DNA from: Parachlamydiales bacterium | Lineage (GTDB): Bacteria > Chlamydiota > Chlamydiia > Chlamydiales > Rhabdochlamydiaceae | DNA length: 64,000 bases | Assembly (NCBI GenBank): GCA_020053915.1 | Contig: JAGVMG010000043.1 | Location: 7,184 to 71,183 of the forward strand | Direction of reading: 5' to 3' | Shown: positions 27,783 to 33,041 of the stretch, piece after piece | Layout of the letters: each line of letters starts with the position of its first letter | Position numbering within the stretch: position 1 is the stretch's first letter | The notes under the pieces: generated by a model | The model's database searches: none | The model's input: only the letters and a program-made list of their open reading frames with translations | Told to the model about the DNA's origin: nothing | Made by a program: the position numbers and the translations under genes

Positions 27783-28415
27783 ATGGTCGACAAAAAGAAA
27801 TTTGCAGAAGAAGAATCTCAAGGCTACCGAATTGACATCGTCGGAAGAAATCTGGAAGTGACCGAGCCGATGAAAAACTACGCTTGGGATAAACTCTCAA
27901 AGATCGAGCGTTTTCATAATCACATTATGTATGTCCATGTCACATTGGATATCCAAAAGTTAGAACATACGTGCATTATCGTGTTAAAGATCGATCATAC
28001 GAAAGTGAAAGTACAGGCGAGCAGTACAGATATGTATCCGTCGATTGATAGAGCGGTGGATCGTTTACAAAATCTCTTACGCAGATATAAGAGTCGAATC
28101 CAAGACCACCACAAGAAGGGACTTGCGATCACGGATATGCAGGTCAACGTCTTGGAAAGACCCTACGATGAAATTGCCGAAATTAATGATGACATTGAAC
28201 AAGCGAAACGGCAAAAACAGATCGACGAGTTTAAAGCGGCGAAAATCATTGGAACGGAAGTCAAGCCATTAAAGACGCTGACGGCCGATGAGGCGCTTAT
28301 GAAGATGGACCTTTCGGGCGATAGCTTTCTTGTTTTCCGCGCAGAAGAGGATTGCAAGTTAAAAGTGTTATACCGAAGAACCGATGGAAATTATGGTCTC
28401 ATCCAGCCGGAATAA
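27783..28415 (+). CDS. hpf: ribosome hibernation promoting factor, long form
   Basis: The N-terminal RaiA/HPF domain (IVGRNLEVTEPMKNYAWDKLSKIERF) plus a C-terminal dimerisation domain (MDLSGDSFLVFR...KVLYRRTDGNYGLIQP). Confidence 0.85.
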   Translation: MVDKKKFAEEESQGYRIDIVGRNLEVTEPMKNYAWDKLSKIERFHNHIMYVHVTLDIQKLEHTCIIVLKIDHTKVKVQASSTDMYPSIDRAVDRLQNLLRRYKSRIQDHHKKGLAITDMQVNVLERPYDEIAEINDDIEQAKRQKQIDEFKAAKIIGTEVKPLKTLTADEALMKMDLSGDSFLVFRAEEDCKLKVLYRRTDGNYGLIQPE

Positions 28416-28857
28416 GAGGCTTGTTTATGATGAGATCCGCAAGCAATGGGTGAGAGCGACGCCAGAAGAGATTGTTAGGCAGAGCTGGATTCAGCGGATG
28501 ATTCAGCAGCTCGGATACCCAAAAGAACTGATGGCAGTCGAAAAAGAGATTCGTGAGTTGCCTCATATTGAGGGCACAGCGATTCCCGATCGACGGGTCG
28601 ATCTGCTTTGTTTTGTAAAGGGGATGGGAGAATACGCTCTTTCCCCTTTGCTCCTCGTTGAATTTAAAGAGGAATTATTGGACCTGAAAGCAATCGATCA
28701 AGTGGTCGGTTATAATTATTTTGTCAAAGCACCGTTTATTGCTGTTGCAAATCTAAGGGAAGTGCTGCTCGGTACAATGGATCGTCAAACGCAGCAGTAC
28801 GTATTTCAACGCGCGCTTCCTCCCTTTGCAGATTTACTAAAGAAGGAACTTGTATGA
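28384..28857 (+). CDS. HsdR_N-like (PD-(D/E)xK fold) domain protein
   Basis: VYDEIRKQWVRATPEEIVRQSWIQRMI..GYPKELMAVEKEI...RVDLLCF...LLLVEFK matches my memory of the stand-alone type I restriction enzyme HsdR N-terminal domain family. The start is uncertain (overlaps the hpf end). Confidence 0.65.
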   Translation: MEIMVSSSRNKRLVYDEIRKQWVRATPEEIVRQSWIQRMIQQLGYPKELMAVEKEIRELPHIEGTAIPDRRVDLLCFVKGMGEYALSPLLLVEFKEELLDLKAIDQVVGYNYFVKAPFIAVANLREVLLGTMDRQTQQYVFQRALPPFADLLKKELV

Positions 28858-30419: not shown

Positions 30420-31282
30420 GTTCAGAAAGCTATACCATTTCACAAGACAAGCTCATTTTACAAGATGCTGAATTGGGCCTCGATCTGGTTCTCCCTTTTT
30501 CGATACCGCGGTTGCCTCAAGATTTAACGGCGCCTAAAGTCCTCGAGCCGGGAATGTTACTTGTTCTCGAGCGGGACCGGGAGTCTTCTCTGCGTGCCGC
30601 CTATCTCACACAAGAGGGCAAAAGACATGGACAATGCCGTCTTTTCTTCTCCGAAGGAAATCTCCAAGCCGAAATGTTCTACCTTCAAGGGAAATTGCAT
30701 GGTCCTTCTTTTTTTTACGGAGATAAGGGAGAACTGCTTTCTCAGATGTTTTTTTGCGAAGGAAAACGGATCGGCAAGGGATATCTCTATTTCCTGTCTG
30801 GAAAAACGGCGAGTGTTCAGCGGTTTAAAGAAGGAGACTGGGATGGGCTCCAAGAATATTTCTATGAATCAGGCATATTGAAAAGCCGCCTTCCCTACCT
30901 GTTAGGCAAGCTGCACGGTCAGGTTTGTCTATATTGGGAAAATGGGCAACTCAAACGAGAAACTGACTATTCCAAAGGTTTAAGAGAAGGCAAAGACCAG
31001 ATCTGGAATGAACAAGGAATATTAGTGGATGCCGGAGAGTACCAAGCGGGACAGCCGTGCGGCGTGCATCGCCATTTTTTTGCTAATGGCTCTCCGAAAG
31101 AAGAAATTGTCTATCACACTCCAGTGCGCTTCGATAAGAAAGAGTGGGATGGTGATGGAAAACTGAAAGTAGAAGCGCTTTGGGACTCCGATTTGACCTA
31201 TACGGAAAAAGTGTATCAAGAAACTCATGGAGCGCGCGTGCGCAAAGGATATTGGGATGGAACTCGGTTGTGTTGGAAGTGA
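30416..31282 (+). CDS. MORN-repeat (YwqK-like) protein
   Basis: Repeated G(K/E)xHGxxxx(Y/F)xxxGxL units throughout the 288 aa. ATGA overlap with the upstream gene. Confidence 0.8.
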   Translation: MSSESYTISQDKLILQDAELGLDLVLPFSIPRLPQDLTAPKVLEPGMLLVLERDRESSLRAAYLTQEGKRHGQCRLFFSEGNLQAEMFYLQGKLHGPSFFYGDKGELLSQMFFCEGKRIGKGYLYFLSGKTASVQRFKEGDWDGLQEYFYESGILKSRLPYLLGKLHGQVCLYWENGQLKRETDYSKGLREGKDQIWNEQGILVDAGEYQAGQPCGVHRHFFANGSPKEEIVYHTPVRFDKKEWDGDGKLKVEALWDSDLTYTEKVYQETHGARVRKGYWDGTRLCWK

Positions 31283-33041
31283 ACTCTCGGCTGAGTGGAT
31301 GCGGCGCTATCCTGAGATCTCTTTTTTGATCTCTTATGGTGAGATAGAGCCCTCTATTCAAAATGAGGATGTTCAAGAGATTGCCGCTTGGCGCGCTCAA
31401 CTCAAGCTGGAAGGTGTCGATGTTCTTTATGTGCTTGGCATCGGATCTAACGCATATCATGAGCTCAAAGGCTGGCTGCACGAGAAAAAAGAGCGGATGC
31501 TGGTCTTTTTGGAAGAGGATCTTGCCGAAATCTCTTCGTTTTCTCAATTAGAAGCCTCCTTGGAAGTGATTTCTGATTCTCAAGTGTACCTCCAGCTCAT
31601 TCAAAATACGAATCAGCTTGCTGAGCTGCTCAAGTCTTTGATCCACGCATTTCCGACACCGCGACTCGAGGTGATCGCAACGCCTGCAGCAGCTCGAACA
31701 AGAGCTTCTCTTTTCAAAAAAGTTCGCATGACGTTACTGCGCGAATGTGCAGTCGGCGATGCTGTGCTGACCGAAGCGCTTTATTCTCATCAGCTCGTGG
31801 AAAATGTCCTCGCTAATTTTAAACGCTGGCCCCATTCCTTCTTTGCCAACGGTCTCAAAGACAAGTTTAAGAATATTCCTGCCATCATCTGTGGAGCGGG
31901 TCCCTCATTAGGTCCTACGATCCCCCTTCTTAAAACGCTCTCTGATCACGCGCTTATCATCGCGGGAGGATCGACCATTGCGGCGCTGAGCAACCAAGGG
32001 ATCGTCCCTCATATCGGCATGGCGCTCGACCCTAACCCGGAAGAGTACTCCCGACTCAGAGTGATCTCGGCCTATGAGATGCCATTTATCTATGGCAATC
32101 GCGTACAGCCCGATGTTTTTCAGACGTGCAACGGTCCTTTCGGTTACCTCCATTCGTTCACGGGAGGGCCGTGTGAAGCCTATTTTGAAAAAGCTTTGGA
32201 GATTACAGGCGATCCTGTCGGTGCGGATCTCGGTCCAGAAGCTTTTTCTGTGACAGCAATGGCAATCGCTCTGGCTGTGAAGATGGGTTGCAATCCGATC
32301 ATCTTAAATGGAATTGATCTCGCATATACAGGCATGCAACGGTATGCAGAAGGTGTGATGCCGACCTCACAGGTGTTTCTTCAGGAAATTGCTCAAGAAA
32401 AACGCGCTTCGGAAAAATTGTTGCGTCGCAAAGGGATTGCAGGGACGATGGTCTACACCCTCGTCAAATGGGTCATGGAATCGAGCTGTATTTCAAAATA
32501 CGCAAAAATCCACTCCGACACACAATTCATCAATGTTTCTCAAGCGGGACTTGGATTTAAAGGGATTCCCAATCTTTCCCTATCTGAAGTGGTCGAGGAA
32601 CACTGCGGGGCAGCCTACGATCTGCGCTCATGGGTCCATGCAGAGATCCAGCAGCTCAACCTCACGCATGTCACTCAAGACCAAGTTGAGGAGCAGTTGT
32701 GCGAAATGCAAATGAGTTTAAGCACGCTCCTTACCCTCTCTGATGCGATGCTTGAAGAGCTCGAAGCCTTTAAAACCTCAGATAATATCCTCGAAAGAAC
32801 GCTTCCTTCTGGAAAAATGACGATCTTGCAGATCGATTTTGAAGAAGAAAAAGCCTTCGAGTGTTTTTTCCCCCACGTCGGCCCCGCTCTCGATCAGATG
32901 TTAAACCGCACCCACCCCTTGCCTTTAGAACGAGAGTCTCTCGAGTACCGTCAGCGGCTCCTTGACCGGCTCATCACCAAATGGCAGCATGTGCGAAAAA
33001 TGATCGTGAAGGAACTTTCCTACGTCGATCGAACTGTCTAG
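31257..33041 (+). CDS. MptE-like/DUF115 (Maf-like) protein, paralog 2
   Basis: PAIICGAGPSLGPTIPLLKTLSDHALIIAGGSTIAALS...ALDPNP core, collinear with paralog 1. The start is ambiguous (ATG 31227, 31257 or 31296) and overlaps or abuts the MORN gene end. Confidence 0.7.
   Translation: MELGCVGSELSAEWMRRYPEISFLISYGEIEPSIQNEDVQEIAAWRAQLKLEGVDVLYVLGIGSNAYHELKGWLHEKKERMLVFLEEDLAEISSFSQLEASLEVISDSQVYLQLIQNTNQLAELLKSLIHAFPTPRLEVIATPAAARTRASLFKKVRMTLLRECAVGDAVLTEALYSHQLVENVLANFKRWPHSFFANGLKDKFKNIPAIICGAGPSLGPTIPLLKTLSDHALIIAGGSTIAALSNQGIVPHIGMALDPNPEEYSRLRVISAYEMPFIYGNRVQPDVFQTCNGPFGYLHSFTGGPCEAYFEKALEITGDPVGADLGPEAFSVTAMAIALAVKMGCNPIILNGIDLAYTGMQRYAEGVMPTSQVFLQEIAQEKRASEKLLRRKGIAGTMVYTLVKWVMESSCISKYAKIHSDTQFINVSQAGLGFKGIPNLSLSEVVEEHCGAAYDLRSWVHAEIQQLNLTHVTQDQVEEQLCEMQMSLSTLLTLSDAMLEELEAFKTSDNILERTLPSGKMTILQIDFEEEKAFECFFPHVGPALDQMLNRTHPLPLERESLEYRQRLLDRLITKWQHVRKMIVKELSYVDRTV

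Follow-up and report, generated by a model that had tools for sequence, protein, structure and literature searches.

Known Maf, MptE, sialyltransferase and MORN systems

To our knowledge, Maf enzymes have been known only as flagellin glycosyltransferases. Here, we describe a pair of Maf-family genes, MafA and MafB, in a 64,000-nucleotide stretch from a Parachlamydiales bacterium (GenBank assembly GCA_020053915.1, contig JAGVMG010000043.1, positions 7,184 to 71,183; this whole stretch is referred to as the window), where they flank a gene for a MORN_2 repeat protein within a run of overlapping genes that starts with hpf, the gene for ribosome hibernation-promoting factor. The flagellin Maf proteins (5MU5; Campylobacter, Helicobacter, Aeromonas, Clostridium botulinum, Geobacillus kaustophilus) resemble the chlamydial proteins in their central PF01973 domain, their three-domain fold and their catalytic positions. 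Both are also cytoplasmic soluble proteins that occur as several paralogs per genome, as in Campylobacter.

The chlamydial proteins nevertheless depart from the flagellin enzymes in several respects. They are only 13% identical to 5MU5, their hosts are non-motile obligate intracellular bacteria, their genes occupy a fixed chromosomal position after hpf, and they have a MORN_2 partner, free or fused, which has not been described for flagellar Maf proteins. Their loci also lack flagellar and nonulosonate-synthesis genes. The sequence inspected comprised 64 kb of the source genome, in which Pfam was run on 51 of the larger open reading frames (ORFs), and 3 to 23 kb of each related genome. No flagellar/flagellin, nonulosonate-synthesis (pse, leg, neu) or pterin/folate genes were present among the 51 scanned window ORFs, which agrees with a preliminary description of this DNA made from the sequence alone, and the fetched related loci held no flagellar or nonulosonate-synthesis genes.

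Other described systems share parts of this architecture. The archaeal enzyme MptE (8SD5), which acts on pterin, has a homologous central Rossmann-like domain with GAGPS and GMDF motifs, whereas MafA and MafB carry additional domains at both ends and lack a pterin context. The GT42/GT29 sialyltransferases (Cst-II; human ST8SiaIII) are distantly similar in the fold of the donor-binding domain (E about 1e-2), and the fold relation of Cst-II to Maf has been stated before (PMC11339370). Like Maf proteins, they use cytidine monophosphate (CMP)-activated ulosonic acid donors, but they lack the Maf N- and C-terminal domains and their acceptors are glycans. For the MORN protein, the nearest described relatives are the YwqK immunity proteins and the Leptospira adhesin LIC20035, which belong to the same family (PF07661) of protein-binding beta-hairpin repeats; here, however, no YwqJ-type or polymorphic toxin adjoins the MORN gene, whose neighbors in all loci are the two Maf genes.

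We found no description of a MORN_2-Maf association in the searchable literature, nor any functional description of this architecture or locus, and the preliminary description had likewise known of none. Mentions of DUF115 in defense papers proved to be DUF1156, matched at the start of the word, and are irrelevant.

A run of five overlapping genes beginning with hpf

The run comprises the following genes, with lengths in amino acids (aa).

27783-28415, plus strand: hpf, long-form ribosome hibernation-promoting factor, 210 aa (Pfam Ribosomal_S30AE and S30AE_C; NCBIfam yfiA/HPF equivalog above cutoff)
28384-28857, plus strand: HsdR_N_2-type PD-(D/E)xK nuclease-fold protein, stand-alone, 157 aa (PF13588, E 1.4e-17)
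28854-30419, plus strand: MafA, putative glycosyltransferase of the Maf family, 521 aa (PF01973, E 2.9e-34, 118.7 bits)
30416-31282, plus strand: MORN_2 (YwqK-type) repeat protein, 288 aa (PF07661, E 3.5e-20, 70.1 bits)
31257-33041, plus strand: MafB, second Maf-family paralog, 594 aa, or 604 aa from 31227 (PF01973, E 2.3e-36, 125.6 bits)

The preliminary description had presented the last four of these as a cassette of same-strand genes at 28384-33041. All four ORFs are present there, and Pfam returned each of the families anticipated (PF13588, PF01973 twice, and PF07661; the gathering cutoffs are 34.6 bits for PF01973 and 29.6 bits for PF07661). The ATGA start/stop overlaps at 28854-28857 (HsdR_N/MafA) and 30416-30419 (MafA/MORN) are exact, and the third junction, which had been left as overlapping or abutting, is a 26-nucleotide (nt) overlap between the MafB ATG at 31257 and the MORN stop at 31280-31282. 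This MafB start (594 aa) is the choice of both the gene caller and the orthologs, with an alternative ATG at 31227 (604 aa). While the four genes are real, the physical unit is larger than had been proposed: the hpf stop (28413-28415) lies inside the HsdR_N ORF, and the overlapping run consists of five genes with hpf first. In two related loci (L022 and L023; loci from related genomes are numbered with the prefix L), the overlaps throughout the five-gene run from hpf to MafB are 4 to 8 nt long.

The Maf and MORN genes would be co-transcribed with hpf, and such co-transcription suggests a link to a dormant developmental stage. A scan of positions 26000-35500 for sigma-70 promoters and terminators gave counts equal to the shuffled expectation. 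A sigma-54 scan (TGGCAC-N5-TTGC, one mismatch allowed) gave four matches, which is the chance expectation, none of them near the cassette. An Rfam scan of 24000-38000 found tRNA-Arg (26473-26546) as the sole noncoding RNA.

MafA and MafB form a divergent Maf pair with conserved catalytic positions

MafA and MafB are about 27% identical over roughly 520 to 540 residues (E 1e-53 to 1e-55), and the signature PAI(L/I)CGAGPSL...ALIIAGGS..AALS...PH......DP.P is present in both. Together with the Pfam matches, both of which lie above the gathering score, this bears out the earlier assignment of the two large proteins as Maf-like PF01973 paralogs that flank a MORN_2 protein. Membership in the Maf family is in itself ordinary and already reflected in automatic annotation; one ortholog has been named by NCBI [quoted passage not shown] In NCBIfam, the only meaningful match is PseD (Maf-family flagellin modification protein), which spans the N-terminal and central domains.

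In sequence searches, the sole solved relative of the Maf-like proteins is 5MU5, the Maf glycosyltransferase of Magnetospirillum magneticum (E 1.2e-3 for MafB by phmmer), and with the family profile its match is at E 6e-15. For MafA, an AlphaFold2 model based on 51 homologs reached a predicted local distance difference test (pLDDT) score of 91.4 and a predicted template modeling (pTM) score of 0.89. When this model was compared with the PDB by Foldseek, 5MU5 alone fell below 1e-3 (E 3.7e-17 over 552 columns; template modeling [TM] scores 0.50/0.43). Thus, the comparison with solved Maf structures proposed in the preliminary description gives a full-length match. The lesser matches (the MptE kinase 8SD5, SteA and ST8SiaIII) are confined to the central domain, at E of about 1e-3 to 1e-2. 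The MafA model has the three-domain architecture of 5MU5, namely, an N-terminal Rossmann-like, a central GT-A-like and a C-terminal helical domain; for MafB, this architecture rests on the full-length alignment with MafA, the one of the two proteins that was modeled.

Mutagenesis has established that Maf activity needs E324 and D415 of the Magnetospirillum enzyme together with a conserved Ser (bioRxiv 10.1101/2020.06.03.131540). In the family profile alignment, MafA D223, T290 and D313 align to 5MU5 E324, T392 and D415. In MafB (604-aa numbering), D268 and D364 fall on E324 and D415, and S341 occupies the conserved Ser/Thr position. The spacing from the Ser/Thr to the second acid is 23 residues in MafA, MafB and 5MU5 alike. 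Among 17 MafA and MafB orthologs, the first Asp (the D223 position) never varies, and the residue at the D415 position is D or E in each case. All three positions are kept in both copies and in their orthologs, and the degeneration that had been raised beforehand as a possible objection is not seen. As judged from sequence, these conserved acidic residues show a putatively intact active site in both MafA and MafB.

The orthologs of MafB range from 30% to 87% identity. MafA lacks an N-terminal extension of about 50 to 70 residues that is found in most of its relatives. No hydrophobic N termini, signal peptides or transmembrane-like segments were found in the cassette proteins, and the best-supported reading is that the Maf and MORN proteins are predicted to be cytoplasmic.

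The MORN protein is a probable partner of the Maf enzymes

The 288-aa protein had been thought to be built entirely of MORN/YwqK repeats. It does carry MORN_2 repeats (PF07661), but these follow a non-repeat N terminus of about 75 residues. Its orthologs, which are placed between or after the Maf genes in other loci, are 162 to 288 aa long and have a common core of four to five repeats, with length varying at both ends. In NCBIfam, the window protein matches the LIC20035 adhesin weakly.

We ran an exhaustive HMMER search of 1.84 billion representative sequences with a MafA profile, which returned 14,132 clusters with E <= 1e-3, of which 2,753 had E <= 1e-30; all of the top 150 were full-length matches (E < 1e-115). 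Pfam was then applied to 59 relatives taken from these 150. PF01973 was found in 59 of 59, and MORN_2 repeats were also present in 33, while the HsdR_N domain occurred in none. The repeats lie near the C terminus in P0209, and the Maf-MORN_2 fusion proteins (among P0209 to P0325; loci L024 and L025) are 750 to 1020 aa long and combine a full Maf-like enzyme with the repeats. A profile search of 5.8 billion proteins with an alignment of MafA, MafB and single-type Maf proteins added almost nothing to the 55 proteins of the single-sequence search and recovered no MafB orthologs.

The genes for the fusions lie at 10001-13054 and 13387-15858 of L024 and at 1222-4239 of L025. The fusion that was looked up directly (P0310, in L024) sits at the same chlamydial locus as the free genes of the window. 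A second fusion gene adjoins a single-type Maf (P0211) in L025, a short contig that shows no synteny. Free or fused MORN genes accompany Maf genes in L014, L016, L017, L020 and L022 to L025. Since natural Maf-MORN gene fusions exist, the free MORN protein likely works physically with the Maf enzymes; at the level of sequence, the fusions are strong evidence that the MORN protein of the window is such a partner, and their occurrence in 33 of 59 relatives strengthens the MORN-Maf link of the preliminary description.

One source labels a Maf-MORN fusion "antitoxin component YwqK," a label that is misleading. We also considered the MORN protein as an obvious Ser/Thr-rich acceptor, which is unsupported, as its combined Ser and Thr content of 9.4% is ordinary.

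The locus is conserved across several chlamydial orders

The nearest relatives of the source genome are metagenome-assembled genomes (MAGs) of Rhabdochlamydiaceae, with 86% MafA identity, which fits the chlamydia-like genome recognized earlier. We compared twelve window proteins with ten related genome loci by tblastn. The order recO, RlmN-like radical-SAM gene, hpf, HsdR_N, MafA, MORN, MafB and convergent NtrC-type regulator is kept wherever a related locus is long enough to reveal it, even at a MafA identity of 31%. These loci include "Candidatus Acheromyda," an uncultured Chlamydiales genome (40% MafA identity) and Anoxychlamydiales (31%). Context look-ups with HsdR_N and distant Maf matches added Parachlamydiales, a Waddliaceae MAG, an isolate-grade assembly and more Anoxychlamydiales, all with the arrangement hpf-HsdR_N-Maf. 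Synteny of the genes in related genomes, on which the preliminary description had staked its proposal, is thus kept across Rhabdochlamydiaceae, Parachlamydiales, Waddliaceae and Anoxychlamydiales.

Within this fixed position, the cassette takes several forms. The form in the window (type 1) consists of HsdR_N, MafA, MORN and MafB, and L014 has HsdR_N, one Maf and MORN only. In type 2 (L012 and L019), HsdR_N is followed by a Lys-rich protein of 137 to 146 aa and a single Maf of about 600 aa that is equidistant from MafA and MafB. The expanded forms (L024 and L025) contain a small protein, one or two Maf-MORN fusions (823 to 1017 aa) and a further Maf; a free MORN gene follows the last Maf in L024 and lies on the opposite strand in L025.

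The small Lys-rich proteins (137 to 158 aa), which appear helical or coiled-coil by eye, are encoded directly upstream of the first Maf in the single-Maf and expanded variants:

L012:9507-9947, L019:3462-3875, L024:9549-9992 and L025:749-1225: small Lys-rich protein genes

They have a common C-terminal motif, (R/K)KKF(K/R)x(L/I/V)GGxxW(L/K)PL, for which we call them "WLPL" proteins. They had no Pfam or NCBIfam match, and none is encoded in the 64-kb window. A WLPL protein could serve as a chaperone, carrier or acceptor.

One of the related loci, L007 (CAMAVL010000016.1; 53% MafA identity), is titled "MAG: Chlamydia trachomatis isolate MaH-04nov19-293" and carries an environmental-chlamydia cassette. 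Its species label looks wrong.

A possible Maf-type protein glycosylation system

Four features are new here: the setting in non-flagellated obligate intracellular bacteria, in which a divergent branch of the Maf family occupies the same core-genome locus throughout several chlamydial orders; the duplication that gave the Maf pair; its coupling and fusion to MORN; and the predicted co-transcription with hpf. The preliminary description had suggested protein modification, or else another nucleotide-sugar or pyrophosphoryl transfer. The Maf fold and the catalytic positions support a transferase, and we consider it an even chance that the locus encodes a system for the O-glycosylation of a protein other than flagellin, in which cytoplasmic Maf-type transferases are guided by MORN. 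Within this proposal, we infer the glycosyltransferase activity, the donor, the protein acceptor and the adaptor role of the MORN protein.

In such a system, the central GT42-like domain of each Maf would bind a CMP-activated 2-keto-3-deoxy sugar acid. The sugar would pass to Ser/Thr hydroxyls of a protein acceptor by way of the acidic pair and the Ser/Thr (D223/T290/D313 in MafA; D268/S341/D364 in MafB), and the beta-hairpin repeats of the MORN protein would recruit or present the acceptor or hold both enzymes together. Most likely, a single chlamydial protein or a small number of them would serve as acceptors and be modified in the cytoplasm. The acceptor would not be flagellin, because these lineages are non-flagellated; known chlamydiae are non-motile, and only some marine lineages carry flagellar genes (PMC8242063).

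As for the donor, the organism makes lipid A, since lpxB is present in the window. Lipid A and lipopolysaccharide (LPS) assembly implies synthesis of CMP-activated 3-deoxy-D-manno-oct-2-ulosonic acid (Kdo). CMP-Kdo from the LPS pathway would be the most economical donor, and a nonulosonic acid would be an alternative if its pathway is encoded elsewhere in the genome. Of the earlier remark that no substrate is obvious nearby, the part on the protein target stands, whereas a donor, CMP-Kdo, is plausible by way of lpxB. Maf enzymes of Geobacillus and Clostridium, if supplied with CMP-Kdo as donor, transfer Kdo from it to Ser/Thr (bioRxiv 10.1101/2020.06.03.131540; PMC11339370).

Several points weigh against a glycosylation system of this kind. 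The Kdo transfer just cited is a promiscuous side activity in E. coli and not the native function of those enzymes. The acidic residues are also conserved in MptE kinases, where the GMDFG motif aligns, and they do not separate a transferase from a kinase. PseD scores only 48.7 and 36.6 bits, far below the NCBIfam cutoff of 670, and neither MafA nor MafB matches Pfam Maf_flag10_N (PF20157), for which reasons we regard the pair as a divergent branch of the Maf family; the single-type Maf of L012 has a weak PF20157 match, below cutoff. Nonulosonate or flagellar genes possibly lie elsewhere in the genome, beyond the 64 kb inspected. Finally, chlamydial genomes are strongly syntenic, and conserved position alone is therefore weak evidence for a shared function.

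If active, the locus would give a conserved protein- or glycolipid-glycosylation system to a phylum without genetically defined protein glycosylation machinery, and the substrates of Maf enzymes would then extend beyond flagellin. A native protein modification by Kdo or nonulosonate, if there is one, could make the biology notable. One specific form of the idea is a native "Kdo-ylation" or nonulosonate system with non-flagellin targets, in which MORN-guided Maf enzymes O-glycosylate cytoplasmic or type III-secreted proteins and are expressed with hpf toward the dormant elementary body. We think this form unlikely. The WLPL protein or the MORN protein might be a carrier or acceptor in it, and, if true, it would mark the first case of a native Ser/Thr-O-Kdo modification on proteins, and the phylum would gain its first protein glycosylation system with a genetic definition.

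Each Maf could instead act on a glycolipid at the cytoplasmic face, adding Kdo or a related ulosonic acid to the lipid A-core (lipooligosaccharide) or to a lipid-linked glycan that is then flipped outward, by analogy with the action of the GT42 sialyltransferase Cst-II on lipooligosaccharide. The central domain is GT42-like by fold, with ST8SiaIII among the fold matches and a 2,3-sialyltransferase as a weak profile match; lpxB lies in the window, and an MsbA-related exporter overlaps or follows MafB in one clade (L003, L006, L017 and L018). The exporter linkage is limited to that clade, however, with the window ortholog 17 kb off on the other strand, and the cassette proteins have no membrane-association features. 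In addition, wherever MORN_2 repeats are known, they serve as modules for protein binding, and all characterized full-length three-domain Maf proteins act on protein (PMC11339370), which leaves a glycolipid acceptor quite unlikely in our view. Size and coverage argue against a further proposal, that MafA and MafB are MptE-like pyrophosphokinases or other nucleotide-dependent small-molecule enzymes that would pass pyrophosphate from ATP to a metabolite, perhaps in relation to dormancy. MptE is a single-domain protein of about 215 to 240 aa, whereas MafA and MafB have three domains and 521 and 594 aa. Moreover, 8SD5 matches only the central 190 residues or so (E 1.8e-3; query TM 0.26 to 0.28), the 5MU5 E-value is 14 orders better, the PseD match covers the N-terminal domain too, and the scanned window ORFs include no pterin/folate genes. 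We therefore judge a kinase function very unlikely, despite the naming of PF01973 for the archaeal 6-hydroxymethylpterin diphosphokinase, the rank of the Methanocaldococcus enzyme 8SD5 as second-best fold and profile match, the conserved Asp residues that it has in common with the chlamydial proteins, and the presence of hpf in the same gene run.

The company of HsdR_N, hpf and RlmN raises the question as to whether the locus acts on nucleic acids or the ribosome, with HsdR_N and Maf as a modification system, a hibernation accessory or an unrecognized defense. HsdR_N has a nuclease fold with an invariant PD-(D/E)xK triad, is present in every cassette variant, and in the window overlaps both hpf and MafA, with RlmN and hpf directly upstream. 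Yet we know of no Maf-family enzyme that acts on nucleic acids, and the fixed core-genome position across orders is unlike that of mobile defense islands. HsdR_N is fused to Maf in 0 of 59 relatives, and in L024 it is parted from the Maf genes and stays with hpf. PADLOC assigned no defense system to Maf or MORN, and HsdR_N matched only the N-terminal domain of methyltransferase models. Such a role seems highly improbable to us, and a known anti-phage defense system was rejected, as PADLOC-DB gives no match for MafA, MORN or MafB. There is very little chance, finally, that the proteins are non-catalytic relics of an ancestral flagellar glycosylation system kept for structural or regulatory purposes. 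Some marine chlamydiae carry flagellar gene sets (PMC8242063), which makes a flagellated ancestor plausible, and most relatives have an N-terminal extension that MafA has lost, but across orders, even where overall identity falls to 27% to 31%, there is little or no variation at the catalytic positions or in the nucleotide-binding motifs (GAGPS, AGGS). The duplication, the MORN fusion and the expansion to three copies in some genomes are the pattern of an active, evolving system.

The HsdR_N-like protein is probably linked to hpf

The 157-aa protein compares most closely with HsdR and the type IIB/IIG enzymes (BsaXI, 8W0P; BpuSI, 3S1S; EcoR124I HsdR, 2W00), with which it shares PF13588 and the PD-(D/E)xK fold and triad. 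Unlike these, it stands alone, has no superfamily 2 (SF2) helicase/ATPase domain, and its gene belongs to the core genome and overlaps hpf in different chlamydial orders; no methylase or specificity genes (hsdM/hsdS) were found among the scanned window ORFs. The AlphaFold2 model (pLDDT 90.6) has its best fold matches in the BsaXI nuclease domain, Cas4 and restriction-endonuclease-like proteins. The motif residues run D73...E93-x-K95, and D73, E93, K95, Q106 and G109-Y110-N111 (a Q-x-x-G-Y-N motif) are invariant in 40 orthologs.

An alternative ATG lies at 28393 (154 aa), and the automatic gene call shortens the protein to 119 aa (start 28498). Because the invariant residues R19 to Q33 precede this 119-aa start, the true start is 28384 or 28393, overlapping hpf.

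The preliminary description had counted HsdR_N as a member of the Maf system, and here the comparison points the other way. The gene is directly downstream of hpf in all related loci and overlaps it in most, while gaps of 50 to 90 nt often part HsdR_N from the next gene. In L024, where two genes have been inserted between HsdR_N and the Maf genes, HsdR_N remains 2 nt after hpf. Considered as a Maf subunit by the Rosetta-stone criterion, it was rejected on the lack of any fusion among the 59 relatives. Taken together, HsdR_N probably belongs with hpf rather than with a glycosylation machinery as one of its subunits; an hpf-linked role is at least as likely as a Maf-linked one.

Surroundings of the cassette

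The following features of the window lie outside the overlapping run.

10008-11792, minus strand: MsbA-related ABC exporter (best NCBIfam matches MsbA_rel and MsbA_lipidA, all below cutoff)
33303-34693, plus strand: helix-turn-helix (HTH)-XRE and Fic/ankyrin gene pair with a 13-nt overlap, between MafB and the NtrC-type gene (Pfam)
34715-35308, minus strand: CYTH gene, also inserted between MafB and the NtrC-type regulator
35693-37054, minus strand: NtrC/CtcC-type sigma-54 response regulator, convergent, a conserved downstream boundary marker (Pfam)
61086-62303: lpxB (Pfam)

The NtrC-type gene directly follows the cassette in L002, L009 to L011, L014, L016, L020, L022 and L023. The XRE-Fic pair, in contrast, is found at this position in this genome only; it is absent there in L002 to L011, and an inverted homologous pair lies elsewhere in L010. 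PADLOC matches it to the candidate defense models PDC-S04 and SoFic. The pair is a lineage-specific insertion and not part of the Maf system.

In the "Candidatus Acheromyda"-like clade, the exporter ortholog (63% identity) overlaps the MafB stop by 4 nt in L003 (14251-16011) and in L017 and L018 (11777-13540 in both), and follows it after a 29-nt gap in L006 (9699-11447). The exporter of the window lies upstream of MafB, and a functional relation is a lead only.

Six large ORFs (360 to 927 aa) had no Pfam match at E <= 1e-4 (13979-16762, 18861-20729, 9-1220, 1259-2341, 2338-3678 and 50900-52399) and probably encode lineage-specific chlamydial proteins. The sole nucleotide-sugar enzyme candidate in the window is a 708-aa protein (44791-46917) with a UGP3-like C-terminal hexapeptide domain and a weak UDPGP match, a candidate for a uridine diphosphate (UDP)-sugar pyrophosphorylase of a type unusual for a bacterium. 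An AbiEi antitoxin/AbiEii nucleotidyltransferase toxin pair (type IV toxin-antitoxin or abortive-infection module) is encoded at 8481-9936. A second CYTH ORF (38048-38839), as called mechanically from a TTG at 38048, runs across tRNA-Leu(CAA) at 38098-38185; this gene probably starts near 38240, as in the L001 gene call. In L020 (GCA_001464115.1), small nitrile-hydratase-alpha-like/RNP_Burkhold leader-peptide genes (868-1161 and 13075-13732), which are nitrile hydratase leader peptide (NHLP)-type precursors of ribosomally synthesized and post-translationally modified peptides (RiPPs), flank the cassette.

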